A stretch of 62,371 nt of DNA, counting the filler, from Stramenopiles sp. TOSAG23-6 (Eukaryota), in NCBI GenBank assembly GCA_900128565.1. It is 26 parts of 26 records of this genome, joined end to end, with 100 filler letters (N's around TTAATTAATTAA, not from the genome) between each part and the next. Parts side by side here need not be neighbours in the genome. Positions count along the whole stretch, not along the records: positions 16,913 to 19,222 come from LT638140.1; positions 19,323 to 21,631 come from LT638141.1; positions 21,732 to 24,038 come from LT638142.1; positions 24,139 to 26,444 come from LT638143.1; positions 26,545 to 28,850 come from LT638144.1; positions 28,951 to 31,255 come from LT638145.1; positions 31,356 to 33,659 come from LT638146.1; positions 33,760 to 36,063 come from LT638147.1; 18 more parts are not named here. The stretch is one strand, 5' to 3'. Below the pieces are notes generated by a model. That model had not been told where the DNA came from and searched no databases. It worked only from the letters and a program-made list of their open reading frames with translations. Below are positions 17,016 through 45,573 of this stretch, one piece after another. Positions within the stretch are counted from its first letter, which is position 1. Each line of letters starts with the position of its first letter. The position numbers and the translations under genes were made by a program.

Positions 17016-19142
17016 TCCGATACATTGCTGCATTATATTGGTCAATTATGACTCTAGGAACTATGGGATATGGTGATATTATAGCTGTAACAGGATCTGA
17101 AATGTGGTTAGCAATAATAATAATGTTGTTTGTTTTAGTTTTTTCAATTTCAGATTTATTTTTTTTTATAGAGAATTCCGTACCTAACAATTTTTTTTTC
17201 CAAATATTTTTTCACAAGACATAGTAGGTAGTTCAATATATGCTTATGTAACAGGTTCTGTGTTTGAATTAGTCACTGCAATGAATGAAGATGAAATTCA
17301 TTATGCTAGTTCTGTTGATCAAATGAATAGATTTTGTAAAGACTCTAATATGTTTTATTTTTTTTCAATTTCGAATGTAGTGTTTTTTTTTCGTACGAAA
17401 TTTCGTACCTAACAAATTTTACAAAAAAAAGATATTTTTTCACAATAAATGTACACCTATTGAAACTAGACTTCGTCTTCGGAGATATTTTATGAATTGT
17501 AAAGGTGTTTTTAAAGAACAATATACTCATAAAGTATTAGAGCATATGTCACCAGGATTACGTCAAGAAGTAACCAAATACACGTTAGGTACATTTTCAC
17601 TATTCATTTCAATTTCAAATTTGTTTTTCATTTGAAATTGTTTCTAAAAAAATTAAAAATTTTATATTTTTTATTTTCATACCAAATTGTCAAATTGTAT
17701 ATCTTACCATTCTAATATCTTTGACATATTTTTCCACTTATAGGTCCTTGTATTAAAAGCGTTTATTTTTTTCGTGGAGGAAATAATGAATCATTGTTTA
17801 TTGCACAAATAGCAAGTGCTTTAATTCGAAAAGGTTTCCCTGCCGGAGAACAACTTGTACATTGTCTAATTTAATTTCAAATTTATTTTTTCATATGAAA
17901 TTTCGTACCTAACATTTTTATTTTTTTTTTTTAAATGAAAATTTCATACCTAACATATACCAAATTTTTGAAATATTTTTTCACAATACTTATATTTGCC
18001 GGAGAAGAGGCGCTGAAAATGTATATCATACAAAAAGGTTTAGTAAATACAACTGGGAAAATATTTAGACGTGGTGATGTTTTAGGTACGGATATTGTGC
18101 TAGGAAAAAGACGTACGTTTTCATCATGAAATTCAAATGTATATTTTTTTTTGTAGAACATTTTGTACGTAACGATTTTTTTTTTTTTAATACAAAATTA
18201 TATACCTAACAATTTTTTTTTTACAAAACATTTTTTTTTCACAATATATGTCTATATTCTGCGACATGTCTTTTATTTACTGATGTGATGGTTTTACAAA
18301 AAAAAGATTTTGATAAAATACTACAAGTATGTTTTATTTTTTTTAATTTCGAGTTTTTTTTTCGTACGTAATTTTGTACCTAACGAGTTTTTTTTTCTAA
18401 AATATTTTTTCACAATACAAAGTAATGATTTTACATATCAAAAAAATAAAATTCGAATTTCTGCAAATTGGATTTTTGCACGTAGTAGAATAAGAGCATT
18501 GGGGAAAATGATACGATTATGTCGAAATATGACATTATCAGAATCAATAGCAATAGGAAAACGAATGTATGTTTTTTCATCATGAATTTCAAATTTAGTT
18601 TTTTTTTTTGTAGTAGATTTTGTACCTAAGGATTTTTTTTATGACTCACCAAAAACAAATATATATATATATATATATAATACATGTATGTTGACGCGTG
18701 GAATGAAATTAAGCCTGCTGTGTTTATAGTATTAAAAAGGGCTGGAGTAAAATCAAAACAAAAGCAAAAGTACAACCCTAACCCTAAAGAGGACAAAAAT
18801 TCTAATTCTTTAAGTATTGGTGACCTTGACAGTAGTATTGATATCCTATCTAAAACTCCTCAACTGTTCAGGCAGCATTACTTCCCTCTCCATATTGAAT
18901 TATCTCGTAAACTAGTACAGGAATTACTACTTAGACAAGATATAATAGTACAAAAAGCTTGTGAAAATTTTGTAAAACCAACTCATAATAAATTCATACA
19001 AGATGTTGAACAGTTTACTGCTGCCGCTTCACTAAAAGTATCACAAAAAATAGCGCATCCTATACAGCATGCAATTTTTTTAGGACTATGTATACTAGTA
19101 TTATCAGCTTCAATCACTGGACTATGTTGTTTAGCCATCTAA
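17016..19142 (+). CDS. Cyclic-nucleotide-binding-domain K+ channel (KCNH/CNG-like), C-terminal half, 8 exons
   Basis: Pore YWSIMTLGTMGYGDI, S6 ML|VGSSIYAYVTG, C-linker SPGLRQEV, CNBD FPAGEQL|IFAGEEALKMYIIQKG. Introns: 17128-17222, 17348-17450, 17589-17743, 17857-17991, 18113-18249, 18327-18420, 18567-18685. Confidence 0.85.
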
Positions 19143-19372
19143 GTATGTGTGTCATACAGTATATATTTTGAACTGCTTTTTTTACACCCACAATAAATGA
19201 ATGACTTTATTTTTTTGAAATANNNNNNNNNNNNNNNNNNNNNNNNNNNNNNNNNNNNNNNNNNNNTTAATTAATTAANNNNNNNNNNNNNNNNNNNNNN
19301 NNNNNNNNNNNNNNNNNNNNNNCGAAATTTTGTACCTAACAAATTTCGAATTTAATTTTTTTTACAATACAT

Positions 19373-20037
19373 GTGGGATAGATTTCAGAAGCGAAGTTTA
19401 GAATGGAAAACTGAAAAAGAAAAAATTAAGCCATTTTTATTAGAAGCGGATGATGTTACAATACACAAAGAGCTCAGTAGAATTGAACCCAAATTAAAGA
19501 ATACTATGAAAGCACATCGAATACAACAAAAGTTAAATGGAAATTCATTCGATGGTGTATGTTTTCATCGGGGATTTTAAATTTATTTTTGTTTGTACCA
19601 AAATCTGTACCTAATGATTTTTTTAGTAAAAAAAATATTTTTTCACAACACATGACTCTCGATCCAAGAAAAGAAGAAAATGGTACAAATGTACTGGAAC
19701 TAGGTTTTGTGTTTTTGTCTTTAGTGTAATTTTGCTTCCAGTTTTTTTTCTAGGACTTCGTTTGCTCTACGTAACGTCACAACACATTAATGCAGGTGTG
19801 TTTTATGCTCAACAAAATCCATATCGTGGGATTGATAGTCTTGTTAATCAGGTATATACACCAACTTGGTATTCTGATCATTGGTATAATTCATGGGATA
19901 CTGATAATCCAAAACATCAAACTCCTTCTGTATTAAAGGCAACTCCAATTTCGAAGAATCCAATTTTTATGAAGCCTCTAGAAGTTATCAATATTGATAG
20001 AATAAAGAGAGAAACGATGGCTCTTGACGCTACATGA
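19373..20037 (+). CDS. Hypothetical single-pass membrane protein C-terminus (GT-AT intron 19557-19653)
   Basis: SFDG|DSRSKKRRKW joins in frame to the TM-containing ORF ending at 20037. Confidence 0.55.
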
Positions 20038-20325
20038 TGATAATATACGTTGTAATAAAAATCATGGAATTTTGAATAAATAAGTCCCCCCTAAATATCT
20101 AGTAAGAAGAATTTTAAATATAAGTATTTCTTTATACTATAAAAATGAACATATTCACTTGAGCATGATTTCACAAATTAAATACTCATCCAAATAGTCT
20201 CAATAAAGTTTTCCCAGAAACACTGGTATTCTTTTCTGCGATTATTATATAACATCGCTTTTTGAAAATAAAAGTTTTGCTATACTAAGTTACAAAATCT
20301 TTATAAACACAAAACTTTACAGAAT

Positions 20326-21542
20326 TCACCGAGATACACCCGTATCCTTGAGTTTTTGTAACACTTCAGCAGCTGCTGAAGGGATTCTTGTTCCTGGACC
20401 AAATATAGAAGACACACCAGCATCTTGAAGGAAGGTATAATCTTGAGGGGGAATGACCCCACCACATACAACTAGTACATGACCAAAGTCTTCGGCTTCG
20501 AGTGCTTTAATCAGAGCAGGAACAAGTGTTTTGTGCCCAGCTGCTTGAGAACTCACACCAACTACATGTACATCAGCATCAACAGCTTGCCGTGCAACTT
20601 CTTCAGGAGTATTGAATAATGGTCCTACATCTACGTCAAAGCCAAGATCTGCAAACCCAGTCGCAATTACTTTAGCACCGCGATCGTGGCCATCTTGGCC
20701 CATCTTAGCCACCAACATACGAGGCCTCCGACCAACACTCGAAGCAAATTCCTTTACAGCGTTATACGTTGATGCAAACTCAGCTTGTTCATCCGTCAAA
20801 TCTTTAGATTCGTCAACATCTTCTGAACCTGCCATAAATTGTGAAGAATATGCACCATCAACTACACTATTGACCGCTTTGTGCCTACCCCATTGAGATT
20901 CCAAAGCATCAGAAATTTCTCCAACCGTACATCGTGCTTTAGCAGCGATAATAGAAAGATGTAATAAGTTAGACGGATGACTACCACTACCAGTGCTCTC
21001 CTGCAATGCTGCAGAATCTCTCAATGCTTGAAGTGCATTTTCCACAGCCTTTGAGTCACGTTTTGAGCGAACATGATTTAGTTTTTTCACTTGTTTTTCA
21101 AAAACGTCGGAATTATCAACAGATAAAACGTCAACACTATCCTGTTCACTAAGGCGATATTTATTTACACCAACCACAACATCCTGACACGTATCAATAC
21201 GAGCTTGTTTTTTTGCACTACTTTCTTCAATACGCATTTTTGGCATACCTTGTTCAATAGCTGCAGCCATTCCGCCTAATGAATCAACTTCATCAATAAT
21301 CTTTATTGCTTCAGCCTTCAGCTCAGCCGTTAGCGACTCCATGAGGTAACTTCCAGCCCATGGATCAACGACCTGACATAAACCTGTCTCTTCCTGTAGA
21401 ATAAGTTGTGTGTTGCGAGCAATTCTAGCAGAAAATTCTGTCGGTAAACCAAGAGCTTCATCGAACGAATTTGTATGTAAAGATTGCGTTCCGCCCATAA
21501 CAGCTGCCATTGCTTCAACAGACGTTCGGACGATGTTATTAT
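20326..21542 (-). CDS. MMUT: Methylmalonyl-CoA mutase, last exon
   Basis: [34 protein letters not shown] and the cobalamin-binding motif [14 protein letters not shown]. Confidence 0.97.
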
Positions 21543-21787
21543 ATATGTTGTGAAAAAATATTTTTTTTTGTAAATACGTTAGGTACAAAATTTCGTACGA
21601 AAAAAAAATCGATTTTTTTGTTAAAAAAAAANNNNNNNNNNNNNNNNNNNNNNNNNNNNNNNNNNNNNNNNNNNNTTAATTAATTAANNNNNNNNNNNNN
21701 NNNNNNNNNNNNNNNNNNNNNNNNNNNNNNNTAGGTACGGAATTTCGTACGAAAAAAAAATATTTGAAATGTATCATGGAAACGTAT

Positions 21788-22287
21788 ATGTTTGTAACAA
21801 AATGTTGTTGCCAGGCTAACTCATGAACAAAACGAACTTTTTTTTGCGAGTTTGGATTTGCACCGCAGTACCCATCGAAGACGTACATCTTATCCAAAGA
21901 ATTAAAATGATCTTGTGCTTTAGCAAAGAGTTTATCAAATACTTCTGGAGAAGTTGGTTGGTTTACACTGCCCCACCAAAGGTTTTTGTCGGATTCACTT
22001 CCAATATTTTTTACTATCCACTTATCACCAGGGGATCGACCAGTAAATTTACCAGTATCTACAGAAAATGTTTCCCCATATTCAGCTTTCATGACAACAC
22101 CTTCATCATTACGCTTTTCATGTTCAAATAACTCTGGGTAGGAAAGGTTGTGGTAGATTGTCTCAGGTCCTGTAATGCCGATACTTTCCAGACAATGAGG
22201 ACGAGCTGGACCAGACATACTCCGTATATTCAATGACATTGATCTTCGGAAGAAAACATTGCACGAACGGACGGAATAAGAAAACAT
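21788..22287 (-). CDS. pckA: ATP-dependent phosphoenolpyruvate carboxykinase, exon 1, with a mitochondrial-type presequence
   Basis: VDTGKFTGRSPGDKWIV, VFDGYCGA, AWQQHFVTN. The intron starts with ATACGTTT at 21787. Confidence 0.93.
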
Positions 22288-22602
22288 AGTTTTGATGTAA
22301 GTAGCTGTAATCGAGTATTATTCGTACAGCTCGGTGCAGTCACGTGAATTTTATTTGTGTCTCAAGTCTCAAAACGTTTAACAGCGGTACTTTGTTGGGG
22401 ATCATTTATATCATGATTCAATACATCAATGAGATCTTTTTGACACGTTTTCCCGCGTCATTCGCGTTTTGATTGACAATTATTTTTACATTAGGTAGTA
22501 AAATTTTGGTACGCAATCCTGATACCCGGTTCCATGTAAGTGTAACTGTCTCTCGAAGCATGTTAACATACTACAACGTAGTGTTTGATTTAAGATTCTA
22601 CA

Positions 22603-24038
22603 ATGGTAAACACGTCAATACCTTTTTTGAAGGAAACATCTATTATGACAATTCCAAATATTCAAAAACAATCGGTCAATCNGCGTAGTATAGCGAAATC
22701 TCATGAAATTTCTCGAAACCAGGACAGAACAAATCAACTGCACTCTAATCAACTTGAAGCTGTCATTCAAAACATACAGAAAATAAGAGAAGTGATATAT
22801 ATTGAATCGTGCAATAAAAATAATCAATTGAATACTTCTAGGGTTCTAAAAGATTGCTTAAATAGTAATACGAATGCCTCTGGGTGGGAAGATGTGCTCC
22901 AATATCTCTCTCGTTACGATACTACAGGTACGCTTATGCATTTCGAAGAGTCTACAAAAAATACTATAATACGTCTATTTTCTTCCTCTACATCCTCTAA
23001 AAGATATCAAAAAGACAAACAAGGAGAAAATGAAATATCCAGTGAAGATTTAACTGATTTTTTTACTCAAAAACCTAAAACAACTAAAAAACCTAAAAAG
23101 CTTACAAATGATGAAACACTATCTAAAAAGGTTGAAGAAATACAAAAACAGAGAATAATAAAATATAGTAAAACACACATCGATGACATTCAAAATTTCA
23201 ATCTTTCCACAAATGTTTCAAAAGTATACACATTGAGTTTGAAAGAAAAGCAAAAATATAAAGAAAAACTTGATATGTTAGTTCAAAAACAACAAAAAGA
23301 AAAAGACAATTTAATAAGAAAATGTAAAGATAAACTGAAAAGAGATGAACAGAAATTAGAAATCTCGGGCTCAAAAAAAAACACCAACACGCGTTAAATA
23401 CATTTTCTCGGAAAGAAAGCAATGCACTCATTAAAGGACATGCAAAACTAGATCAAAGATTTAACGATGATGTGCGTTTTAAAAAGTGAATATTTTGGCC
23501 AAAGTTTTTTATTTCTTTTGAATGGCGAAGTGTTAGAGCTTCTACATCTTTATTTTGATTATCCAAATTCTTTTTTATTATCCAAAAAAAAAAAACTATA
23601 TTTTTTCACAATGCATATAAGAGCTACAGAATCTCCTCAAGAAGTTGCAGAATTGAAACAGCGTCTACGAAATACTCGTGAATTCAATGAAAATGAGTTT
23701 GGTAAAAAAAATGAATATTATGTACAAAAACCTAGCATTGAAACATGCAACGACTGTATATTAACCCTAACCCTAATGAATAATTTTCCATTTTTTTTAA
23801 TATTACATTTTGTACCTAATGAAAACAAACTGTGACAGATTTTATCACAATACATATGAATTTGTTAGAGGCTTCAAATATGCGAGAACGAGTTATTGAA
23901 GATGCTTTACTAAAAGGGAAAATTGCAGTTCTTAAAAAGCAGAATTTGGATAATCAAAATAAAGATGAAGAAGCTCTAACACTTCGCCATTCAAAAGGAA
24001 TAAAAAACTTTGGAGTTCCAATGGATGAAACAATGTGT
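22603..24038 (+). CDS. Hypothetical coiled-coil protein (one apparent 1-nt indel near 23360; diverged family introns 23472-23616 and one ending 23855)
   Basis: Consecutive ORFs can be linked by excising the introns. Confidence 0.45.
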
Positions 24039-24138
24039 NNNNNNNNNNNNNNNNNNNNNNNNNNNNNNNNNNNNNNNNNNNNTTAATTAATTAANNNNNN
24101 NNNNNNNNNNNNNNNNNNNNNNNNNNNNNNNNNNNNNN

Positions 24139-26544: not shown

Positions 26545-28805
26545 CTCACAATACTTGTGGCATCAAAGAAGTCCATCCAAAAACCCATCAGAGCGACAAA
26601 GTATACCTCATAAACACCCCACAGAACGTAGAGCAATTCGAATGGCAGCACAACAAAATCTTCCTAGTCAGCAAGCTCTCCGGCGCACAGTGTATGATTG
26701 TAGAGATCGACTTGGAAAAACGAAACTAACTCGACTCATGTATGTTTATTTTTTTTATTTTTTTTTAAATTTTTAAATTTTTTTTTTCGTACGAAATTTT
26801 GTACCTAACATTTTTTTCAAATTTTTTTTGAAATATTTTTCCAAAATACATTCCTCGTCAATGTCTAGCATTTGATTCACACTTTGAGTCAGGAAATCTT
26901 TTAAAAGCCGAACGAATTTTTAGAAGCCATCAGTATACAAAAATGAATGGCAACACAAGTAACACTGGATTTAGCACTGAAAGGCATGTAAGTTTTATTT
27001 TTTTTTTTTTTTTTTTAAAGTAAAATTTAGAATGGATAAATTTTTTTTTTTTTNNNNNNNNNNNNNNNNNNNNNNNNNNNNNNNNNNNNNNNNNNNNNNN
27101 NNNNNNNNNNNNNNNNNNNNNNTAACAAAAAATAATTTGAAATATTGTTTCACATTGCATTTATTTGGTTCTATTCAAAAACGATCATTACAGGATATGC
27201 ATTGGCTTAAGCCAATCCTACATTCTGATTCTAAAAACCCTAATTCTAATTCTATATTGAAAAAAACACAAAATAAACAAAATAAACAAAATAAACAAAA
27301 CACAGCATTTAGATCAGCTAACACTAACACTAATACAAACACTAATGAAAAAGCAAAAGATGCAATAGAAGTTCAAGAATATGATTTGACAATATCAGCT
27401 GATGTTGGCACTGAAAGACATGTATGTTTTATTTTGTTTTTGTTTTTGTGAAATATTTTTTTTTTTGGTACGAAATTTCATACCTAACAAAAAAAAATTT
27501 GAAATATTTTTCCAAAATACATGTGTTTTTTTTTTCTTTATTTACCGAAAAAAAAAAAAATTGTACCTAACGATTGTTTTTTTTTTTGAAATATTTTTCC
27601 AAAATACATGCTCAATTTAATTATGGCCAACGTCCAGTCTGTTACAGTTACACCGCAGCAATGACAAAAAGTAGAGGTTGGGAACCATGTGGATATAATA
27701 TTTCATATATTTCATCAAATGAAAGTAGCATAAGATGCAAAGTTCGTCGATACTGCCTCTGCTTTGATTATGAATTTCAACATCAAGGTGATAGCGAAGC
27801 ATGTTTTTTTGCGTTTAGTCCACCATATACATATACCGACATGCGAGCCACTCTAGGTGATATCATGAGCGACCCAGAAAGAGCTATGTATATAAAACAA
27901 CGTGAGTTGTGTACAACGTTAGCTGGTAATCATGTTGATATCTTGACAATTACAGCACCACATCAAAACAAAAAAAATATTGCTGAAAAAAATGATAAAG
28001 ATGAAACACAATTTAGAGCAAATAAACAAAACAACAAAAACATACCTGAAAATAATATAGATGAAACACAACATAGAGCAAATAAACAAAACAACAAAAA
28101 TATTGCTGAAAATAATAAAGATAAGACACAAATTTGGCCAATCATTCCTAGACAAGAAAGATTTATTGTCGTACTCACAGCACGGGTTCACCCTGGTGAA
28201 GCCAATGCTTCATTCGTAATGGAAGGTTTACTTTTATTCCTCACTGACCCTGATAATAAGGAGGCTAAACAACTACGAAATTGTATCGAGTTTCATGTCA
28301 TCCCAATGTTGAATCCAGACGGAGTCATCAATGGTAATTATCGATGTTCCTTGTCACGCGATGATCTCAATAGACAATACCAAAATCCATTGGAGTATTC
28401 TCACAAGCCTGTGTTTTACTTTAAACAAATGATGAAATCATTGAGTCTACTGCATTACCGTGGAAAGAGTAAACTTGCTTTTTATTGTGATTTTCATGGG
28501 CATTCTAGAAAAAATGAAGTTTTCATGTATGGCTGTGTTGATAAAAGAACATTGAGTAATCGCCCTGTGCCTTTACAGCCACTACCTTTAACTGTGCAGA
28601 CTCGTCCACAAACAGTAACAAAATCATCAAACCCTAACCCTAACCCTAAACCGAATTCTACAGATGAAGAAAAACAAACTCAATATACATTATCTCAAAA
28701 TAACACACCTGTTTTGAGCGCTGCACAAATAGCTAGGAAGCGTATCCGTTCGGAAAGACAAATGCGAGTTTTAGAACAAAACGAAAAAGACACTCAAATG
28801 TGGAT
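26545..28805 (+). CDS. Cytosolic carboxypeptidase (CCP/AGBL, M14 zinc peptidase, tubulin deglutamylase-type), internal part
   Basis: FDSHFESGNL, QEYDL, PPYTYTD, ARVHPGE, PMLNPDGVINGNYRC, DLNR, DFHGHS. Confidence 0.92.
27963..28132 (+). repeat. In-frame ~60-nt tandem repeat (about 3 copies) within the carboxypeptidase
   Basis: NKKNIAEKNDKDETQFRANKQ / NNKNIPENNIDETQHRANKQ / NNKNIAENNKDKTQ. Confidence 0.8.
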
Positions 28806-29009: not shown

Positions 29010-29691
29010 ATACAAACTGAACACGATCCAATTTCCAATTTTTTTTTTTTACGTGCAACGTGATCACTACCAGTACTACCAGTAAAGACTGCTTTTGGTG
29101 TAACGAAATGTTCAACTTTATTTGTTACTTTTGTACTTTGATCGATTGTATTACGTGTCAAAAAAAATCAAAACATTTGTTAGGTACAAAATTTCCTATA
29201 AAAAAAAATTGAAAATTTGAAATTCATGATGAAAACGTAATTAAAGTAAATCGAGGTGCAAGTGAAAATGTATTCAATGTATTTGAAAATCTTTGATCAT
29301 AATCCAATGATAGTCTATCTCTAATTGCTACGAGAAGATCTGAGGAATCTTTCTTAGTCGGCATATTGGAAAACAATTTGACTGAGGAATTTATAATAGA
29401 TGATTCATTTGAACTTTTCTTAGTAATAGACTGCTTAAACCGAGTTTCATCTTGTTTTCTTTCATCTATTGAACGTCTTGTAATTTCCTTCTTAAGCGAT
29501 AATAGAGAAATTAACTCTTTCTTAATACCCATCAGTGTTGCAGCATTTCGATTAATAGCATCACTCCGATCCTGAATTTCCTGTTGCTGTCGCCGTAATA
29601 TACTTTCTATATTCTCTTGTGCTAGGAGTTGAGGGATTGTTCCGCTTGTAAACAAACAAAATATACCACAGAGTAAATATAGCCAAATCAT
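29010..29691 (-). CDS. Signal-peptide/anchor coiled-coil protein, 5' part (intron 29146-29240, TT...AA)
   Basis: Hydrophobic N-terminus; PRFTL|IDQSTK joins in frame. Confidence 0.55.
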
Positions 29692-29960: not shown

Positions 29961-30910
29961 ATGAGTTTTATATGGGTAATAATGCTATTGCCAGCTTCGG
30001 TATTGAGTATGAAATGCGCGGGAGAAACATGGCATCCTCCTGAGGATTGGACAAAATTGGACAAATCCTGCAGTTATAAAAAGAGCTCTTCGGATGACTG
30101 CAGAGATCAAGAAAAGTTTATGCATGGCTGTCGATGTGGTCAAATGATATGGATGTATGTACTTATCTATAATACGTTTCAGTTTCAGTTTTTGTTTTTT
30201 CTTTCTCTCTTCACTGATTACAAGAAGAAAATGCTCGAAAAGATTTTGAAAAGAAAATGAGTTCTTGAACCTATGCCTAACTTCTATACATGAATGAATA
30301 TATATAACACATAATCGAGCTTTACAATATAGTGGGCAAACTACTCCTGGAAGTGGTGTGTATTCCCTCCAAGGAATTTGTGATTACTGGTTGTCTCAGG
30401 AAGTTATTTCTTTTTACTGCTTAAGCACGTGTACGTTTTCAACATCAATGTAGAATTTATTTTTTCATACGAAATTCCGTACATAACATTTTTTTCCATT
30501 TTTTTTCCATTTTTTTTCACAATACATGTAAGACACTGGCAATCAAAATTGAAAGTATCTTATCTCTTGCCATTACCCCTGGCGACGCTGCACCATATAT
30601 TGACTTTAGCTCGGCAAAATCAAATATTTCAAAAATCTGCTGTACATTTAAATCTAGAACTAGTAAAATTATCCCAATAAAATTGTCAAATCGACCTGGA
30701 TTTGGTCCTTATGAATTTATCGAAAATTCTTCTGTTTTGTATCCAAACCCTAACCCTAATGAACCAGAATATACCATTTGGATGGATAAAAAAGATACTC
30801 TTTGGATGGATAAAAAAAATAATTGGAAACCATTACCCATTATTCCTAAAAGTTCTACATTAATTCCTCCAGAATTTACACTTCGAGATTGGGCAACTCA
30901 GCATACATAA
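29961..30910 (+). CDS. Small secreted Cys-rich protein (exons 29961-30154, 30333-30430, 30528-30910)
   Basis: Signal peptide MSFIWVIMLLPASVLS. One GT-AG and one GT-AT intron give a continuous frame to the TAA at 30910. Confidence 0.65.
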
Positions 30911-31355: not shown

Positions 31356-32313
31356 GTATAGTGACATTGAGATTGTGGCAAAAAAGATTATTTCGTGTGG
31401 TGGTCTTGAAAAATAATTGATAATATCATAATGAAAACAAACATGTTTTTTTGACCATGGATGGTTCAAAATAGTACCTAACAATTCACTCCTAAAGTAT
31501 GAAATATTATCTTTACTTTGTTCATTCATTATTTCATCCGTACCAAATTTCATACCTAAAGAATTTAGGTTAGGGTTAGGGTTACAATTAGGGTTAGGGT
31601 TCAATTGAATTGGATTTCTACAAAAATTATTTTTTGCTGTTGCTAATAGAGTTGGGATTAAATCTAAGCAACGGACATCAGCTTTATCATGAATATTTGA
31701 TGACAAAATTGGTTCTAAAATAATATTGGAAATAAAATAGTAATCAAATCCATTTGACGGTAGAATACAATATATACAACATTCTGAAATTCGTTAGGTA
31801 CGGAATTTTCTATACAAAAAAAAAAAAAAAAATAAAAAAAAAAAAAAAAAAAAAAAAAATAAATGTACAATTCGAACGTACAGATCTTGAGCACTTTGTT
31901 GTGTGATATTCCTCTCGAGAATCAATAGTAGCATATTTGTCATTACTCTGAGGTTGTGATTTCTCATTACATTTTTGGCTTTGTTGACAAAGACAGAGGT
32001 GTAGCTCTGACATGAACAATATTCCTAGTCTACCGTCAATGAGTTGATTTTGTAATGCCTTGACCGATACAACAAAAGCTTTTTGCTGAGTTCTTCGAAC
32101 AGACAACAAGATTCGGAGTAGCTTGATTCGGTCGTCTGATGATATTTCATTTTGAAATAGATGCTCCGATTCTGAATCTTTATCGCTTGATCTGGTACTG
32201 TTACCACTTAGATGACTGAATAAGTCATTTACGTGCTTCTCGCTCAATAGATCAACATATGCAGTAATATCACTAGACTTTGTCTTTTGGAGTAAAGACT
32301 NTACCAGATTCAT
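31356..32313 (-). CDS. Hypothetical protein, 5' part (intron 31769-31868, GT...TT)
   Basis: VRSN|CILPSNG joins in frame with the ORF ending in the gap. Confidence 0.5.
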
Positions 32314-35126: not shown

Positions 35127-35281
35127 AAGAATTGTTCGAGAAGGAAAGCGAAAATATCGCCATAAACCTTTATCAAGTACAAGAAAGATATGTATACATG
35201 TACTACTATTTTTTTGTTAGGTACAAAATTTCGTACGAAAACAAAAATTGTCCTCTTGTTGTATGAGACATTTTTAAAATA

Positions 35282-36063: not shown

Positions 36064-36215
36064 NNNNNNNNNNNNNNNNNNNNNNNNNNNNNNNNNNNNN
36101 NNNNNNNTTAATTAATTAANNNNNNNNNNNNNNNNNNNNNNNNNNNNNNNNNNNNNNNNNNNNACAAAATTTCGTACGAAAAAAAAAATCGAATTTGAAA
36201 AAACATAAAACATAC

Positions 36216-37181: not shown

Positions 37182-38463
37182 ATGGTAGTATCATCGGAGA
37201 ATGTTGAATCAATTGTACATAATGTGGTTAATAATACACAAGTAGTTGACCTTCATACTCATTTATTTCCATTTACTCACGATGATTTATTTGTGTATGG
37301 CATTGATGAGTTATTGACATATCACTATCTCATTGCTGAGTTCTTTGCAGTTGCGTCGAATGAAATTTCCACTGAAGTGTTTTTCTCTCTGACAAAACAG
37401 AAACAAGCAGATTTGATTTGGTACAAACTGTTTATCCAGCGTTCCCCAATATCCGAGGCTTGTCTGGGCGTTTTGACAGTTCTAAAAAAGTTAGGTTTAG
37501 ATACTTTCATTGTAAATCGTGATCTTCAAGGTATTCGTTCATGGTATGCAAAATTTTCACCAGAAGAATTTGAATCTTTAGTATTTACAAAAGCTAAAGT
37601 ACGATATGCAGTCATGACTAATATCCCATTTGACCCAGTCGAAGCAAAACATTGGATGAACAACAAAAAAGTTTCAAGTTATTATGTACGTTTTATTTTA
37701 TTTTATTTTTTTTTTGTTTTTCGTACGAAATTTTGTACCTAACGAATTTTCAATTTTTTTTTTGAAATATTTTTCCAAAATAAACAAGTCTGCTCTGCGC
37801 GTAGATGCTTTACTTTCAGCCAATGGATGGGACACTGTCTCAAAATCGCTTGTTGCTGCTGGTTTTCCAGCATCTATTGAAGGTGCACGAGAATATTTAC
37901 GATCTTGGATTAAACGAATGAACGTTTTTTTTTTTGAAATTTTTTTTTTGAAATTTTTTTTTTTGAAATTTTTTTTTCGTACGAAATTTTGTACCTAACA
38001 GTTTTTTTTAGATTTTTTTTTTTTGAATTTTTTCACAATAAATATCTCCTGTATATTTAATGGCATCGACGCCCTGTGGATTTGCAACTCCTCTTCCATA
38101 CCAAAATTCCGTACCTAAAAACCCTAACCCTAACAGCAGTGAAGAATATCCGTCACCACAAACACTTCTTGTTGATGTTATAATATACGTTGCTCGTGAA
38201 CAAAATTTGGCTGTAGCGATGAAAATTGGCGCTGATCGATGTGTAAATCCTTGTTTGCACACAGCTGGTGATGTATATTTTCATCATGAATTTCAAATTT
38301 ATTTATTTTTTTTTTTTTTATAGAAAATTTCAAATTTTTTTTTTTTTTTCAAAATTTTAAATTTTTTTAAACAATTTTCTGTTGTTTCACATTTTGTCAA
38401 TATTATAGGGTGTCGAAGTCGCTGATCTTTCAATCATCAAATATTTCTGTCAAAATTTTCCAG
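37182..38463 (+). CDS. Uronate (glucuronate) isomerase of the Bacillus halodurans BH0493-like amidohydrolase group, 3' truncated
   Basis: VVDLHTHLF, GIDELLTYHYLIAEF, QADLIW..LF..RSPISEAC.GV, VMTNIPFD. Introns: 37686-37785, 37920-38043, 38273-38408. Confidence 0.82.
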
Positions 38464-38659
38464 NNNNNNNNNNNNNNNNNNNNNNNNNNNNNNNNNNNNN
38501 NNNNNNNTTAATTAATTAANNNNNNNNNNNNNNNNNNNNNNNNNNNNNNNNNNNNNNNNNNNNTATTTCAAAAAAAAAAACTTAAATTTGTTAGGTACAA
38601 AATTTCGTACGAAAAAAAAATGGATTTTTTTTTTACCGGAAAAAAAAAATAAAACATAC

Positions 38660-39588
38660 ATGACATCTTCATTTAAATTTCGAAACCATTGACTTCTATT
38701 ATCAAATTTGCTCCATGTCAATTGTGACAAATCTATAAGTTCGTTGGATCCTAGGACACCATCATCATGGACATCAAACTGTGTAAATAAATAAGACGTA
38801 TATTGTAGAATTTGTTCTAACTTTACATTTGAAATATCTTTTTCTATCTGACTAAATTTTTGCAATTTCCTACTTTTTAGGTTTGGGTTAGGGTTAAGAG
38901 TAGGCTTTAAATTAATTTTAATTTTAACCCCAAGAGGTCCAATTGATGCAGCTTGCATCAAACCTACCACCTGAGCTTGTTTTGCTTTCCACATTTGAAG
39001 GATACTCACTTGACACCACTCGGTATTCGAGAATTCATCGTGCAAAGACAATAATCTAGACAGCAAAGTTTTTTTCTTTTTTTGCTTTACGAAATAGTTC
39101 ATTGGGTTAGAGTTTTGGTTAATTAGGGACATTTGTTTATCCAAAAAAATCATTTGTTTATCTAAAAATTCCAAATCTACACCCTCATCACTATACGATT
39201 GCATTATTGTATCCGCATCAGCATCATTTAATGGTTGGTATGTTGTTTTTTCTAACTGTACTAATTTATTTTTTCTTGCACTTGACTTTCGCATTTCTTC
39301 TTCAATAGTGACGAATTTACTCAAATGTGTGATTCTTCTTGCTTCACAAAGAAGCATATTAAATATTACCCTATTCTGGTTCATTTTCCGTGCCCAGGAA
39401 ACAAAAGCTATGCTAGCTGCTTTCTGATCACTTGATGACCAGCCACTGTTTTGTCTTGACACGCGAATGAAGGTCTCTTTAGCGACATTAAACCTATATT
39501 GATCTGCATCTGCTGACCGCGCAAATTCTTTCAGTATTTCACTTATAGTTGCCGATGGTTTTGGCATACCTTCAACTGCGAAATCCAT
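38660..39588 (-). CDS. Hypothetical protein with an EF-hand, exon 1
   Basis: LFTQFDVHDDGVLGSNEL. Confidence 0.55.
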
Positions 39589-39931
39589 AATTTCTATACA
39601 AATATAAGGCAAACGCTTTACAGTATTATCGTGACTAGGAGTAGGACGAAGGCCTTGTGTAGGTAGACAACAAATCAAATGACGTTTCAAACGTTTCAAA
39701 CCGTTTCAAAAAAGCGACCGTTAATTAAAAAAGGGGTTCAGGTTTTGAAAGCCTTACCTTATGTTCTGACAGGATAAATTTGGATTAACAAAGAATATAA
39801 GCATAAACAATATATATATATATCAACATGCAAGAAATATGTACAAGATGAGTGAGTTATATTTACTTAAAGAACTTGTTAAACAATTGAGATGAACGTA
39901 CAGATTTGAATAGTAGTTTCCAACGTAGAGA

Positions 39932-40863
39932 ATGGAGTTTAAGTCAAATCAGTATAGTAATCAACAACTAGGTATTGCTTTCACGCTTCCAGAGGAACTT
40001 CATGAAATGGGAATACAAACAAGAATGCTAGAAAATGCTTTGCAAAAAGCATTCCCCGTTGAGCAAATAAACAAAAAAGAAATAACGCTAAATGAAACAA
40101 ATGCACTTCGGTTGAAGCTATTTATTTTCCAACTTGAAAAGAAGAATCAGCAAAATCTTTCCAACGCATTTGCAAAATGGAAAGATTTGATAATAAAACA
40201 ATTGCGAGCAAATTTAATGAAGTGCAAATTCAAATTCTATCTTGAACAATATAAGGAGAGGACATCGCATATATGTATTCAAAGAAATATGCTCGAGTGG
40301 GGAAAAATACATGAATTTGAAAAACTACAAATTTGGGAAGAGATGGAGGTCGCTATAAAAGTGAGAGAGCAACATATTTCTCTTTTGACTCTGAACTCTG
40401 TCGCCGATCGATATCAATTACGTATGATTTTTCGTTATTTTACAGGATGGAAAAATTATATAAGTATAATTCGCCAATATAACTGGGGAGGATCGCAACC
40501 TAACCATAGAATAATTTTGGGAGTAGCCACAAGCGAAATAGCTCAAGGACATGCTATATATATCCTACATGCAGTATTCAATGTACTTTTGAAGAAACGT
40601 ATTTGGAGAGCATGGTGTGCATGGCGCGAAATCATTCATGTCTCGATTTGTAAGGATATAAGATATTTGCAAAAATTTAGAGAAGCAAATACTTTAAAGG
40701 AATATGCTCTGTATATTCTAAATAAGACATTAAAGAGATTATCGCGTAAAAGATGCTGGTCAGCATGGTGTACCTGGAGGGGTAAGTTTTATATTTCACA
40801 GAATGACAAAGATATGCTTTTAGCACGAACGGAACAACAAAAGCTTGAAAGGAGACATGCTAC
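39932..40863 (+). CDS. Protein with Sfi1-like (F/W-x-x-W-K/R) repeats, 5' part
   Basis: AFAKWK, RYFTGWK, RAWCAWR, SAWCTWR. Confidence 0.5.
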
Positions 40864-41067
40864 NNNNNNNNNNNNNNNNNNNNNNNNNNNNNNNNNNNNN
40901 NNNNNNNTTAATTAATTAANNNNNNNNNNNNNNNNNNNNNNNNNNNNNNNNNNNNNNNNNNNNCGGTGATAGTATGTTTTCATCATGATTTTTAATTTTT
41001 TTTTCATACGAAATGTTGTACCTAATACATATTTGAAAATTTTTTGAAATATTTGTTCACAATATAT

Positions 41068-42561
41068 GAAGTGGTGATATCATTGAATGTTATATTTCTT
41101 GTGTTGAATTTCAAATCAAACATACAAATGAATATTTGTCGGCTTTGTGTGGAAGAAATACTCAAAATATTGAAAAAAAAAGATGGCCTTGAGGCGTCTT
41201 TAACAATTGCTAGAAAAGGTCTAATATCTGCAAATACAGCTCTTGTGGCTTCAACAAAAGAAAATCACAAGGTTTATTCCAAGCTATCTGAACAAAAAGA
41301 GTCAGCAACATCCGAGTATGAAAAACTCTGGAATGAGAATAAAAAATATAATACTAAAATTGTACAATTAGAATATGAAATAAAACATTTACAAAAACAA
41401 CAAAATAGTATAAAACACGAATCGAAGTCTCAAATTAGAAAAGGTATCAATCATATCGATTCAAAATACTCTTTACAGAAAAATCGAGATTTTTTGGCGT
41501 GTAATGAAAGTAAAAAGAAACACGATGATAGCTCATCATGTGATTCAGATTCAAACTCAGACTCAAATTCTGATTTAAATGTAGATGTAAAAAACGAAAA
41601 ATTGTCACAAAAGTTAAAAAATACACGAAATCTTTTAAAGACAATGTCACAAGAAAAAGCACAACTAATAAATATGAGTAAACGATTGAAGTCTGAGCTA
41701 CGAAAAATGGCAACCGAGAAGAAAACTATTGAAGAAAATACACGACATCCATTGAAATCTGAGAAGAAAACCATTAAAGAAAATACACGAAATCCATTGA
41801 AATCTGATTTACAAATAGAAAAACAAGATGAATATACTCAGAAAATATTAGCTGTGAAGAGCGCCCTTGAAACTTTAGCAAAGCATAATAAAGCATTAGA
41901 TGATGATGATAATTATTTGCCACACGAAAAACATGAAACTACAAAACATACAATGAAACCTCCACAACAAAATGTGTCGAAACAACTTTGGGCACCAAAT
42001 GTTTCAAAAGTTCCAAAAACAAGTTTTCGTGTTTCTACATCAAGTCGCTTTGGTGGCCCTGTAGCGACATCAAGTGGTCGAATGACAAAGAGTCAAAAGG
42101 ACGCCGCAAAGAGAATTCAGAAGCGTCATCAAAAATCGATCCAACAAAAAAAAAATATTCCTAGAAATTATGTAGAATTGAAAAAAATACAAATGGAAAA
42201 AGTAAAAAATATACAAAATAATGATACTACTGAAACAAAAGATAATATATATAAAAGTAATATAAATAGTGGAAATTCTGGACATTATAACCCTAACCCT
42301 AACAACAATTCTTGCGATGTAGAACTTTTATTAGCAATGCAGCAACAACTGAAGAGGAGATGTGTAACTCGGAATCATTTATTTATTGTTAGTGATGCCG
42401 ATAGAAATAATAAACTTTCTTTGAAAGAATTCGAGAAAGGAATAGCTCTCGTTGGTGTTCGACCAATCCCTAATAAAAAAGAGATTCAAATATTATTTGA
42501 ATCGTATGATATTGATCAGGATGGCTCAATTGTGTGGAGTGAGATTAAAAGTAAAATATAA
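41068..42561 (+). CDS. Coiled-coil protein with a C-terminal EF-hand pair
   Basis: DADRNNKLSLKEF and LFESYDIDQDGSIVWSEI. Confidence 0.7.
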   Translation, partial: EVVISLNVIFLVLNFKSNIQMNICRLCVEEILKILKKKDGLEASLTIARKGLISANTALVASTKENHKVYSKLSEQKESATSEYEKLWNENKKYNTKIVQLEYEIKHLQKQQNSIKHESKSQIRKGINHIDSKYSLQKNRDFLACNESKKKHDDSSSCDSDSNSDSNSDLNVDVKNEKLSQKLKNTRNLLKTMSQEKAQLINMSKRLKSELRKMATEKKTIEENTRHPLKSEKKTIKENTRNPLKSDLQIEKQDEYTQKILAVKSALETLAKHNKALDDDDNYLPHEKHETTKHTMKPPQQNVSKQLWAPNVSKVPKTSFRVSTSSRFGGPVATSSGRMTKSQKDAAKRIQKRHQKSIQQKKNIPRNYVELKKIQMEKVKNIQNNDTTETKDNIYKSNINSGNSGHYNPNPNNNSCDVELLLAMQQQLKRRCVTRNHLFIVSDADRNNKLSLKEFEKGIALVGVRPIPNKKEIQILFESYDIDQDGSIVWSEIKSKI

Positions 42562-42593
42562 CCCTAACCCTATTCAGTTTATATTATTATTTT

Positions 42594-43261
42594 TTATTTT
42601 TCTTCTTCACTTTGCTTAAATTTCCCTTCAAAATAATTATCCCACAAATTCTGAAATATATCTGGCTGAGTACGTGACCAAATTAAATATTTTGGAACTT
42701 TTTTGTTGTTTTTAGACAAAAGCGCACGTTTTACTATATTTTCAGTAACATAGTGGAAAGAAACTCCATTCAACTTATGCCCTGCCATTCTATGAGTTAT
42801 TTCTCTAGCAAAATGAGATAAATTGCTAAATTTTGTCAACTGAACACGCTCGCCGCTACCAGCTTTAAAATTGCCTCGAAGAGCTTGTTTCCAATCAATA
42901 ACTGAAGCCCAAGACCTCGCAACAGCCATTTCAATTTCACCAATTTTTTTTGAAAATTTTTCATTTCTGATTGGTTTGACAGCGACGTTACTATTTTTTC
43001 TCCGAGAATCCTTTGCTTTTTGCATTGATCTGTATATATACTCAATAGCATCTGCCACACTACTGTATGGATATTTTTCTATTTTTTTCTCATTTGTGTT
43101 TTTTTTCTTTTTTTTTGATGTCTTTGGAGAAGAATTCACATCCAGTTTGTTTTTGGTATGAACTTTATTACTTTCACCCAACTCAATTTCTTGAGACTTT
43201 TTATCATTCTGAAAACTTTGATCACCCATATTTTGTAATGGATTATTCACATTTTTCTTCG
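42594..43261 (-). CDS. Hypothetical protein C-terminus
   Basis: 218-aa ORF, open toward the gap. Confidence 0.5.
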
Positions 43262-43418
43262 NNNNNNNNNNNNNNNNNNNNNNNNNNNNNNNNNNNNNNN
43301 NNNNNTTAATTAATTAANNNNNNNNNNNNNNNNNNNNNNNNNNNNNNNNNNNNNNNNNNNNATTTTGTACCTAATAAATTTTAGTTTTTTTTTTTTGAAA
43401 TATTTTTTCACAATACGT

Positions 43419-44897
43419 GTGCCTTTTTATGCTGTGCCTCCTGTGTTGCTATTATTAAATGCGTTTCCTGTTAGCGCTATTGGAAAATTAGACAGAAAGC
43501 TAGTATCATCTGAAAATGCAAGAAAATTACCCAAAATGATTTCGACAATGTCAGCGAATGAAAATTATGAAAATATTAAGGAAAATAATGAAAATAATGA
43601 AAATATTAAGGAAAATAATTATAATAATGATGATGGTGTTTGTGTATCCGAGGAAGATATTTTAAAGACTCCAATTGAACATCAATTGGCATCAATTTGT
43701 ACGTTTTCCTATACAATTTCAAATTTATTTTTTTATTTTTCCTAGAAAATTTCGAATTTCAAATTTATTTTTATTTTTCCTAGAAAATTTCGTACCTAAT
43801 GATTCTTTTTTCGACATATTATTTTTCACTATACAGGGGAAACATTATTAAGTTTGGATACGTCCAGTGTTGGAGCATTTGATTCTTTTTTCCTCGTTGG
43901 TGGTCATTCTTTACTCGCTGTTCGTTTATGTAGGTTTTTTTTTTTTTTTGAATTTTTTTTTAAATTTTTTTTTATAGTTTATTTTGTACCTAACAAAAAA
44001 CAATTTTTAATTTTTAAATATTTTTTTTTTTGTAGCAGCTAAAATAAAAGCAGAATTCTTTACTAAAAAAGACCCGGGTAATGAATCTTCTGTATGTTTT
44101 ATGAAAAATCATTTGAAATTAAGTGACATTGTTCAAAATCCTGAATTGAGACAAATGGCAAGTTTAATTGAAGAAAGATTAAAACTTCATAATGTAAATA
44201 CAAAATCGAATACAAAATCAATACATTCTGAAACATCTAAAAAATTTAATTTTTCTATTGATATAGAAACTAAATTATCTGATGATATTTATCCTGCAGC
44301 AACACGAAAAACGGGATATTCACGAGTTCGTCCATTTCAACAAATTGAATCAAATAAGGTTCCAAATCGGATATTATTGACTGGAGCTACTGGTTTTCTC
44401 GGTGCTTTTCTATTATTAGAATTGTTATCAAATACGACAGCGACAATTTATTGTATTGTCCGTGCTAAAAATGATGATATTGCTTTCAAAAGAATAATTG
44501 ATAATTTATCAAAGTATGACATGAATAATGATATTATTCTTTCAAGTATTGAAAACGATCGAATTATTGGAATCTCTGGTGATTTATCGCGTATGTTTTT
44601 GTATCATGAATTTTACTATTTATTCCTTACAAAAAATAGGTTTTTTTATTTGTGTAGTACAAAATTTCATACCTAACAAAAACAAAAACAAATTTCAATA
44701 TTTTTTTTTTCCTTTATAGTAAATTTCATACCTAACAAAAACAAAAACAAATTTCAATATTTTTTCATGATACATGTCCTTTGGTAGGATTATCCACTCG
44801 GGCGTTTCAAGAATTAGCAACAATTATTGATGTCATTATTCACAATGGTGCAGAAGTGAATTTAATAAAATCATATGAATCACTTAAATCTACAAAT
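43419..44897 (+). CDS. NRPS-like adenylation-thiolation-reductase protein (internal exons)
   Basis: A-domain end (PFYAVP...FPVSAIGKLDRK), T domain (LASI|WETLL...DSFFLVGGHSLLAVRL) and thioester reductase (ILLTGATGFLGAFLL, GDLS|RPLVGL, IIHNGAEVN). Confidence 0.88.
43699..43836 (+). other. Family intron with canonical GT-AG ends (defines the family register)
   Basis: att t|gtacgtttt...cgtacctaat...cactatacag|gg gaa gives the conserved Trp of the T domain. Confidence 0.85.
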
Positions 44898-45065
44898 GTA
44901 TGTTTTATTTTTTTTTTTTAACAAAAAAATCGAATTTTTTTTTCGTACGAAATGTTGTACCTAACAATTTTTTTTTTTACAAAAAAAAAAATTTTATAAC
45001 CAAAAAATTTTTTTTTTTTTTTTTTTTTTTCATACAAAAATTTTTACCTAAAAAAAAATTAATTT

Positions 45066-45096
<31 letters not shown>

Positions 45097-45136
45097 TGAC
45101 TAAAAAAAAAAAATTAAAATATTTTTTACAATATAT

Positions 45137-45573
45137 TCATTCTCAAGATGAATCATCCCAACCAAAAGAACCAAAAGAACCTGGTCAAGTTGGACGTCGT
45201 CCAAATGCATTATCGTATAGATCACTCATAAAAGCTCATTTGAAAACAGGGGGTCAAATTCGAAATTCGAGAAGTGCATGTATGGTTTTATTTTTTTTTC
45301 AATTTTTTTTCAAAATTTTTTTTTTCGTACGAAATTTTGTACCTAACAAATTTTTCTAGATTTTTTTTTGAAATATTTTTTCAAAATGCATCTGCTCATA
45401 TGGGAGGTGTTGGTTGTAATATTTTTTACAGACTTGCAGCAACTTCATTATTCAATTGTGAAGCCGAAAGAGGATATAGAGCTGTTGTGAAGGCAAATCG
45501 GCAAGGTAAGAAAGGCATCGCTGCACAAATTTTGGCAAGTGAAGAGCTCGCCATGGCTGATGATGCTGGATAT
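45137..45573 (+). CDS. Two internal exons of an unrelated hypothetical gene (intron 45280-45391)
   Basis: NSRSA|SAHMGG joins in frame. It is neither phase-compatible with nor homologous to the reductase domain. Confidence 0.5.

Follow-up and report, generated by a model that had tools for sequence, protein, structure and literature searches.

Putative introners with non-AG ends and short junction repeats in the coding sequences of a MAST-3-type stramenopile

How can the coding sequences of an uncultured marine stramenopile stay open around many copies of one T-rich element, and which signals would allow these copies to be removed? The question is raised by 62,371 bases of DNA from Stramenopiles sp. 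TOSAG23-6 (assembly GCA_900128565.1), the whole of which is called the window here. It has a G+C content of 24-37% and is made up of 26 whole small contigs of a fragmented assembly (2,318 down to 2,282 bases) ordered by length and joined by linkers that consist of 44 N's, a 12-base word with stops in all frames and 44 N's again (2319-2418, 4737-4836, then every ~2.4 kb); distances spanning a linker are meaningless, and the non-N total is 59,444 bases. In a preliminary description of the window the elements were seen to end in the same bases as the exon before them, and it was proposed that a target-site duplication may supply the acceptor. The explanation favoured here, tentatively and at a little less than an even chance, is that of an introner family with non-AG acceptors, whose insertion into CAT|GT sites (the bar marks the junction) would leave short repeats in a variable register.

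The elements belong to one T-rich family with copies of 90-135 nt, longer where the middle is duplicated, of which 33 are complete and about 18 are cut. A 12-base word from the middle of the element, TTTGTACCTAAC, occurs 68 times against 7.9 expected, and a nhmmer profile built from 18 copies gives 59 matches with E<1e-3 in the non-N bases. The complete copies were curated by hand and some of their ends were set by eye; 37 had been scored in the preliminary description. Four ambiguous copies were excluded from every count: 11854-11945, which starts ATACG and has a shortened 3' end; 17591-17742, a probable copy with a short 3' deletion, exon end AG and intron end AT, judged by eye and with uncertain ends; one at 23788; and the divergent 31769-31880 (−). 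Here and below copies are on the plus strand unless marked with a minus sign, and pairs such as AT/AT give the end of the upstream exon and the end of the intron.

Three blocks are conserved in each copy, namely the start GTAYGTTTT, an inner block TTTCGTACGAAATTTTGTACCTAAC and the end ATATTTTTYCAMAATAC followed by two bases. The conserved GTA...TAC ends, and the multi-copy, non-coding and intron-forming character of a mobile element family, were recognised in the preliminary description and stand. The first part of the inner block is, in most copies, a perfect 12-base palindrome centred on CGTACG (for example 57945-57956), and its last part is similar to the branch box of yeast. Many copies have another palindrome further upstream, around TTCGAA; both palindromes could be protein-binding sites or hairpins. 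Five copies (17857-17991, 18113-18249, 43699-43836, 44591-44775 and 44898-45136) show an internal tandem duplication around the CCTAAC box, with the duplicated boxes spaced 37-85 nt apart.

Two loosely separated subfamilies can be told apart by their ends, one ending in CCAAAATAC with a pairwise identity of 0.75-0.88 and the other ending in CACAATAC with 0.60-0.81. The mobility of the family is putative; the observations that bear on it are this identity, only 0.75-0.88 in the tighter subfamily, and the 19 of 52 contig ends that lie inside element copies; contig ends within repeats are the usual outcome of short-read assembly. The more than 50 copies are found in genes of unrelated function, and in all 31 copies with readable flanks the element lies on the sense strand of coding sequence. 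A fragment with the inner block alone, at 35214-35247 (−), sits between two convergent genes outside long open reading frames (ORFs) and is the sole copy seen outside coding sequence. Two of the traits that characterise introners, one sequence shared across unrelated genes and a coding sequence restored by its removal, are found in this family, and its removal follows a simple rule.

In the frame test, the bases beyond TAC that must go with the core in order to join long open frames on both sides (k) were determined for each copy. Removal from the start GTAYG to 2 nt past the conserved AATAC restores the frame in 30 of 31 testable copies, with flanking frames open up to 460 codons and intron phases 0, 1 and 2 represented 11, 14 and 6 times. 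The rule is not applicable to the two of the 33 copies that touch contig ends: 2222-2318 (of the CCAAAATAC type, AT/AT) ends at a contig end and leaves no readable downstream frame, and 40972-41067 lies 8 nt from a contig start and has no readable upstream frame. Among the copies aligned over the whole nhmmer model the rule holds for 11 of 12. The exception is the inner end (27520) of a tandem pair at 27422-27609, which is laid out as AT-copy-AT-copy-AT and removed as one; at the inner end the intron continues into the second copy, and the outer end passes. The sole true exception is the long composite copy 44898-45136, which fits if it is ended 2 nt earlier, with an AT end retained.

Comparison with homologous proteins is in agreement with exact removal. 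When 44591-44775 is removed from a reductase domain, 143 homologues span the junction, and 138 of these show no gap in the alignment; removal as GT...AT leaves R as the junction residue, K or R stands there in 57 of the 143, and the best match has the identical motif. Removal of 47683-47786 from a DRG GTPase gene yields a protein collinear with its closest homologue (P0124), in a search that covered the longer length class; the two junction registers give P and H, both unseen in most homologues, with one distant match having PN. The copy 43930-44035, which ends in GTAG after an exon end AT, splits a carrier-protein motif whose top homologues are ungapped at the junction, where the junction residue is variable. 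In the TsaD/Kae1-type gene, recognised by Pfam and interrupted by 54739-54833 (AT/AT, in agreement with the frame rule), the two exon ends fall on neighbouring stretches of solved TsaD chains, to within about one residue; the match of the first-exon piece is weak (E=0.75), and the first exon has no match to the solved structures at E<=0.01. Removal would take place at the RNA level, probably by a spliceosome that tolerates a last base other than G.

It is very unlikely that the copies are something other than RNA introns, that is, DNA removed somatically, insertions that kill their genes, or artefacts of assembly or amplification. This could be argued from six copies that have no GT start and from the contig ends that fall in copies, yet such contig ends are expected from short-read assembly, and more than 50 copies in unrelated genes, with long open frames and domains intact across the junctions, speak for removal from the transcript, as do the sense-only orientation and the spliceosome-like donor and box.

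If these are introns, their ends are unusual on one side. The first two bases are GT in 29 of the 33 copies, AT in two, TT in one and GA in one, and the last two are AT in 26, AG in three, AA in two, TT in one and AC in one. Adding nine copies that retain their 3' end at a contig end brings AT to 33 of 42, and a further cut copy at 26545 ends in TT. Of 32 copies, 29 have a pyrimidine at intron position -3 and 31 have A at position -2. In place of the YAG of other eukaryotes the acceptor is thus YAT, or at times YAG, YAA or YTT, and the AG that closes a canonical GT-AG intron is present in just three of 33 copies: 43699-43836 (ending TACAG, exon end TT, frame rule and junction comparison), 43930-44035 and 53133-53233 (−; ending TACAG, exon end ACAT, frame rule, placed by nhmmer). 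Since the acceptor lies two bases past TAC whatever the identity of these bases, it is probably placed by the conserved 3' block.

No AG occurs in this conserved 3' block. An in-frame AG lies 3 nt downstream in only three copies, as CAG at 7852-7944 (−; AT/AT) and 57914-58011 (AT/AT), both placed by nhmmer and following the frame rule, and as AAG at 37686-37785, a copy with the degenerate end TAAAC whose end is uncertain; hidden canonical acceptors therefore cannot be the general explanation. Taken by themselves, these copies (37686-37788, 7852-7944 and 57914-58014) could use a canonical AG acceptor at the cost of one amino acid.

The six copies without a GT start comprise four of the 33 complete ones (17348-17450 and 47683-47786 with A at +1, 29146-29240 (−) with T at +1 and 37920-38043 with GA) together with 11854 and 21787; four of the six (11854, 17348, 21787 and 47683) start ATAYG. 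Two of these four lie in conserved genes (DRG and PEPCK) with frames otherwise intact, and these may still be removed.

An A at +1, present in four copies, is among the points in favour of boundaries drawn 2 nt to the left, which would make the family AT...AC introns of the U12 type or of the U2-type AT-AC class. In matched copies that register gives the same mRNA; an A as first base with a C as last is a known compatible pair of intron ends, and U12-type introns tolerate varied 3' ends. It is nevertheless a highly improbable assignment. The ends lose conservation (AT in 18 of 33 copies and AC in 23, against GT in 29 and AT in 26), the AG variants fall exactly at the terminus of the unshifted register, and at 44591-44775 removal as GC+GT...AC predicts C as the junction residue, which is found in 1 of 143 homologues. 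The donor GTAYGT(TTT) departs from the U12 consensus, whose donor is RTATCCTT and whose branch box lies about 10-26 nt from the 3' end; the box of the family is 34-50 nt from the end. An Rfam scan of the window matched no family and no small nuclear RNA (snRNA), and this absence is uninformative on a minor spliceosome, not contrary to it.

With the boundaries placed in this way, it can be asked where the last two bases of the intron come from. They equal the last two bases of the upstream exon in 18 of 33 copies, and the upstream exon ends in AT in 18 of 33, in line with the 20 of 37 and 21 of 37 counted in the preliminary description. Of the matches quoted there, the following are present and obey the frame rule: ACTT/ACTT at 17857-17991, TACAA/TACAA at 18327-18420 (placed by nhmmer), AA/AA at 29146-29240 (−), TGCAT/TGCAT at 45280-45391 and GCAT/GCAT at 26988-27160, whose middle is masked by N's. 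Further matched copies are 1988-2079 (AT/AT, exon 2 starting GT, k = 2, junction repeat (3,2)), 6815-6918 (−; ACAT/ACAT, a match to the full nhmmer model, k = 2), 26740-26851 (CAT/CAT), 37920-38043 (starting GAACG, AAT/AAT), 59351-59452 (AT/AT) and 62014-62121 (AT/AT); the last four follow the frame rule, with placement by nhmmer in 59351-59452 and the junction comparison described below in the other three. All four TT and AA ends had been said to match. Three do so, TT at 17857 and AA at 18327 and 29146, and these are the three clear intron ends that are neither AT nor AG; the fourth, ATT/ATT at 31769-31880 (−), depends on which of two possible GTAC starts is chosen, and is not accepted.

The excess of matches depends on how it is counted. 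The plain count of 18 barely exceeds the 14.45 matches that permutation gives on average (p=0.017), as AT predominates at both ends (18 of 33 exons and 26 of 33 introns). The rare variants give a clearer answer: non-AT matches number 3, where 0.27 are expected (p=0.0009). Matching suffixes of at least 4 nt (4-5 nt) occur in 6 copies against 2.27 expected (p=0.004), among them two in which TAC has become TGC and the exon ends in GCAT; the summed suffix length is 58 against 43.1 (p=0.0012), and the exon base recurs in 9 of the 22 intron bases that deviate from the TACAT consensus, where 4.3 are expected (p=0.011). These tests, about a dozen, were made post hoc on a small hand-curated set, and correction leaves only two or three of them significant, those with p near 0.001. 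The correspondence between exon ends and intron ends is thus real but statistically thin and partly confirmed; locus-specific repeats are seen in a minority of the informative copies, and the link between locus and intron end comes from few copies with rare variants.

On the other side stand eleven of the 33 copies in which the intron ends in AT after an exon that does not, and there the acceptor AT was therefore not copied from the exon end. In order along the window they are 7561-7660 (−; exon end CT), 9200-9299 (−; AC, k = 2), 17128-17222 (TT, in a channel gene), 17348-17450 (TA, starting ATATG), 18113-18249 (AC), 19557-19653 (GT), 30431-30527 (GT), 40972-41067 (TA), 44591-44775 (GC), 47683-47786 (CT, starting ATATG) and 59650-59742 (TA). 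Apart from 40972-41067 at its contig start, the frame rule applies to them, together with the junction comparison in 7561-7660, 17128-17222, 17348-17450 and 18113-18249 and with placement by nhmmer in 19557-19653, 30431-30527 and 59650-59742. As had been reported, the downstream exon starts with GT in 18113, 30431, 44591 and 59650. More generally, exon 2 begins with G in 10 of 15 copies without AT...AT against 3 of 17 matched ones (p=0.010), and with GT in five of the former.

The copies thus do not show a target-site duplication of fixed length and fixed place. The proposal that a duplication supplies the acceptor holds for about half of them, in which removing the element and one AT repeat restores the frame, and the three non-AT cases show that the terminal dinucleotide can track the exon end; in the eleven mismatched copies it is AT regardless. 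A strict version of the proposal, in which the element is a cut-and-paste miniature transposable element with inverted repeats (MITE), with GTA...TAC ends and a fixed 2-nt duplication that prefers AT, would have to treat the mismatches as later changes, for example by selection to AT or AG. It is compatible with the 18 matched copies, with the agreement of all three clear variant ends and with the single ATs shared within the tandem pair. The exon end is AT in two of the three AG-ending copies, which stand one step from AT/AT and would fit as AT copies with one change. Matched copies are also somewhat nearer the consensus than mismatched ones (median identity 0.83 against 0.745, among the 29 of 33 copies whose length allowed alignment), and the exon end is AT in 6 of 7 copies of the CCAAAATAC subfamily (p=0.08 for the association with subfamily).

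We nevertheless regard the strict version as improbable. In each of the eleven copies one or two directed substitutions would be required in the last intron bases, two being called for in the changes from TA to AT (three times) and from GC to AT (once). The difference in identity has p=0.105 and the best nhmmer score in the window belongs to a mismatched copy, 9200-9299, so that the mismatched copies are not clearly older. The G or GT at the start of exon 2 in mismatched copies is left unexplained. The short inverted repeat that had been described is present in all copies as ATGTA...TACAT, but it measures 5-6 nt, below the about 10 bp or more typical of MITEs, and only in the CCAAAATAC subfamily does it reach about 9 nt, with one base bulged. 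No transposase or integrase family was matched by Pfam among the 58 ORFs of the window that were scanned, in which only host genes were recognised, and the description of the element as MITE-like is weak. To our knowledge, no eukaryotic DNA transposon superfamily makes a 2-nt AT duplication; Tc1/mariner makes TA.

The flanks of the elements reveal a strong bias. The exon end is AT in 26 of 42 copies (the 33 complete ones and nine that retain the 5' end) against 9.7% of the coding background, and exon 2 starts with GT in 7 of 32 against 5.5% (p=0.0015), which bears out the AT|GT-biased target of the preliminary description. In addition, C stands at exon position -3 in 13 of 32 copies against 16.6% (p=0.001), and exon 2 starts with G in 13 of 32 against 19%. 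The preferred target is CAT|GT, which is the same as the two ends of the element joined, and therefore repeats of the consensus type alone cannot prove a duplication; a large introner survey makes the same caveat in the part considered here, namely that matches across an intron cannot separate duplication from site preference (PMC9860276). At exon position -4, C is found in 0 of 32 copies (A in 14, T in 10, G in 8), where it makes up 16.6% of coding bases.

These features would also be expected without any duplication. The whole intron GTA...TACAT could be mobile with both of its splice sites and enter, bluntly or by reverse splicing, at CAT|GT-like sites, CAT|GT then being a lineage-specific proto-splice site and AT...AT an insertion preference. 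Such a course agrees with the 26 of 33 copies that end in AT whatever the exon end, with the strong bias on both sides of the junction and with the caveat just cited; there is no real inverted repeat and no transposase in the window, and the sense orientation in 31 of 31 copies recalls the gene bias described for fungal introners, which are thought to be mobile as RNA (PMC9860276, in the part concerned). It is unlikely all the same, because it leaves unexplained the locus-specific matches (TT/TT once and AA/AA twice, p=0.0009, and those of TGCAT and GCAT), the A or T at intron +1 that matches the first base of exon 2 in 47683-47786 and 29146-29240, and the either/or pattern of AT| and |G flanks.

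The whole left junction (exon end and intron start) was also compared with the whole right junction (intron end and start of exon 2). A direct repeat of at least 2 nt across the splice point is present in 24 of 32 copies, against 17.3 in shuffles (p=0.0004), and all repeats together add up to a length of 81, where shuffles give 64.4 (p=0.002); the high shuffle mean arises because the target consensus resembles the joined ends of the element. The repeats are 2-8 nt long and lie in the registers (2,0), (1,1) and (0,2). Most are AT|...AT|, T|G...T|G is found in 7561-7660 and 19557-19653 (in 30431-30527 it reads T|GTA...T|GTA), T|A...T|A in 47683-47786, whose intron starts with A, |GT...|GT in 18113-18249, 44591-44775 and 59650-59742, and AA|T...AA|T in 29146-29240, whose intron starts with T (TTACG). 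The longest, AT|GTATGT, belongs to 18567-18685 (AT/AT), where exon 2 repeats GTATGT and the repeat is 2+6.

Four further schemes were considered and dropped. A 3-nt ATG or 4-nt ATGT duplication disagrees with the rarity of G or GT at the start of exon 2 in matched copies. Neither Helitron-like insertion between A and T nor duplication of TA in a different register improves the fit to the counts, and for the TT and AA copies the left junction is predicted wrongly by crossover of a consensus circle at microhomology.

For the introner family with repeats in a variable register, the course of events may be pictured as follows. A short, T-rich, non-coding mobile element would spread through the coding exons of a MAST-3-like stramenopile and be excised from the transcripts so that protein can be made. 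Each copy would bring a yeast-like donor GTAYGT, an inner box CGTACGAAATTTTGTACCTAAC as the putative branch site and the conserved 3' motif, and the cut-out would run from the G of GTAYG to 2 nt beyond TAC, whichever bases these are (AT, AA, TT or AG), with the acceptor probably positioned by the element's own 3' block and not by an AG. Insertion would prefer CAT|GT and mostly leave a short direct repeat lying across the splice junction. Slightly more than half of the copies would have AT...AT as this repeat, the second AT serving as acceptor and being a copy of the exon end; in others the repeat would lie 1-2 nt further on (TG...TG, GT...GT) or be longer, in which case the acceptor AT would be the element's own and the repeat would cover part of the donor. 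The elements would be tolerated in exons because the host machinery removes them exactly. A fixed-length duplication by a DDE transposase does not give the variable-register pattern, which a 2-base overlap of the target with a circular or end-joined form of the element, or short-homology end joining, might produce.

Several observations weigh against this explanation. Splicing is deduced from frames and homology. Mutual information between exon and intron positions, proposed as a check of the covariation, is not significant at n=33 for any of the positions -1 to -5 (p=0.06, 0.34, 0.42, 0.17 and 0.75) or for the dinucleotide (p=0.075). The variable-register repeat was defined post hoc, shuffles already give it in 17.3 of 32 copies, and repeats of at least 3 nt (p=0.30) or at least 4 nt (p=0.087) show no significant excess. 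Five copies have no junction repeat (9200-9299, 17128-17222, 17348-17450, 37686-37785 and 40972-41067), and three more have one only if AG is a mutated AT. The G excess at exon 2 could be compensation at the splice site and not a trace of duplication, and the copies without GT are possibly dead. As for the branch-site role of the inner box, its distance from the 3' end varies within the 34-50 nt, and several copies contain an unused TAG between the box and the end. Finally, RNAalifold on 18 copies predicted 0 pairs, with no consensus structure and no conserved end-to-end pairing.

A bolder version of the introner explanation is a long shot. The spliceosome of a lineage of uncultured marine stramenopiles would routinely accept U for the last-position G (YAU), with the site set by the 3' motif of the element and not by a scan for AG, and integration at CAT|GT would proceed through the 2-nt overlap in a variable register. 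If true, it would point to a circular or recombinase-type intermediate rather than a DDE transposase, and the proto-splice site would be a footprint of integration chemistry. No intron outside the family was met in the roughly 59 kb of the window, in the course of work that was not a systematic survey, so most introns of the host may belong to the family.

That a target-site duplication can supply a splice site of an introner is already published for other organisms, and the present family shares features with several of them. The introners of Micromonas pusilla and Aureococcus are likewise short, non-autonomous, intron-making elements that are removed together with one duplicate, the element giving one splice site and the duplicated target the other; they differ in their clear 3-nt (or 8-nt) duplications, real inverted repeats and AG acceptors (according to parts of PMC11282704), whereas the repeat here is of 2 nt, variable in register and absent in some copies, and the acceptor is AT. 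The architecture closest to the duplication proposal for this window is that of Chrysochromulina, with its own 5' site, a 3' site from the duplication and no inverted repeats; its duplication is of 4 bp and its splice sites are apparently ordinary (PMC9860276, relevant part).

Other systems depart from GT-AG. In Fritillaria borealis, transposon-derived, lineage-specific introns without GT-AG use an exonic repeat TAC as the 3' site and are removed by an adapted major spliceosome; their ends are AG-AC or AG-AT, with a non-canonical donor and in an animal host (from the section of PMC11282704 on them), whereas the family of the window combines a good donor, GTAYGT, with an acceptor that deviates in its last base alone. 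Amoebophrya has repeated non-canonical introns with direct repeats that overlap the boundary and vary in length, composition and position, as here, but these introns carry hairpin-forming inverted repeats of 8-20 nt, have no clear terminal dinucleotides and lie in GC-rich genomes that reportedly lack U1 (PMC7789003, in part); the elements of the window have well-defined ends in which no pairing was found. The nonconventional introns of euglenids also combine non-GT-AG borders with junction repeats that resemble target-site duplications, and differ in pairing near both ends and lacking a pyrimidine tract (PMC11282704, same limitation to parts), whereas the present elements show no conserved pairing and are extremely T-rich. 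With no conserved end pairing, the structure-guided model of euglenids and Amoebophrya does not apply. Fungal introner-like elements share the strong gene bias and show neither duplications nor inverted repeats, and reverse splicing has been proposed for them; their splice sites are canonical (PMC9860276, in part), and the present family has locus-specific repeats in some copies.

The full-text literature searched, which excludes preprint supplements, yielded no description of this family or of GT...AT introners. The intron passages of three MAST-3 genome papers (PMC5778133, 10.64898/2026.04.17.719054 and PMC12614181) describe no such introns, the word 'intron' being absent from the portion of PMC12614181, on the Incisomonas genome, that was available, and the part of the PMC9860276 supplement that was covered has no MAST entry. 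PMC12130899, in the relevant part, admits AG and AC as 3' ends, and transcript confirmation was required there for a family with unfamiliar splice sites to be retained. The present introner family, which pairs a canonical donor with a YAT acceptor in the genes of an uncultured marine stramenopile, is apparently undescribed.

The identity of the host is suggested by a methylmalonyl-CoA mutase fragment that equals eukprot:GSMAST32.ASY1.ANO1.443.1 except for gaps and has 76% identity with a second eukprot protein; this match points to a MAST-3-type heterotrophic stramenopile. Other host genes recognised by Pfam on the contigs include kinesin, PEPCK, DRG GTPase, TsaD, MnmA, Mo25, carboxypeptidase and cold-shock protein. 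Against window positions 20329-21630, the public mutase model (P0004, eukprot GSMAST32) splices out true exon pieces, and a public model from the same organism, eukprot:GSMAST32.ASY1.ANO1.762.1 (P0122), translates through two copies as if they were coding; the introns of the family were therefore not recognised in that annotation. A peptide from such read-through, used as a query, found 1 protein among 6 candidates, from the same organism, which is uninformative on other taxa.

Telomere-like tracts of (CCCTAA)2-3 lie within long ORFs at 2730-2741, 13199-13214, 18776-18787, 28630-28649, 30748-30759, 31570-31599, 38122-38133 and 42287-42302, and also at 4301 and 23762; exact 12-mers number 14, and shuffles give 0. 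Every tract in an ORF has its C-rich strand as the sense strand and is read as Asn-Pro repeats; the reverse orientation would be equally free of stops. Two family introns truncated at contig ends have (TTAGGG)2 directly behind the donor GTAYGTT (45573-45590 and 47919-47935), in the place of the T run of other copies, and a third tract, in the opposite orientation, follows GTATAT at 23762.

The divergent picture given by the junctions leaves the interpretation of the preliminary description half right, and partly supported: the family, its sense-only position in exons and its target bias are observed, and the link between exon end and acceptor is seen in a part of the copies. If the introner explanation is true, a stramenopile would have undergone mass intron gain by one introner family that combines a canonical donor with a non-AG acceptor. 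Such a genome would allow the choice of the 3' splice site to be tested in nature, together with the question whether the exon-junction consensus is a footprint of insertion or a requirement of splicing. It would also have a practical consequence, as gene models that assume GT-AG break on the genome of this host and prediction based on GT-AG fails; gene counts and functional inferences for such single-cell genomes may accordingly be too low or distorted.

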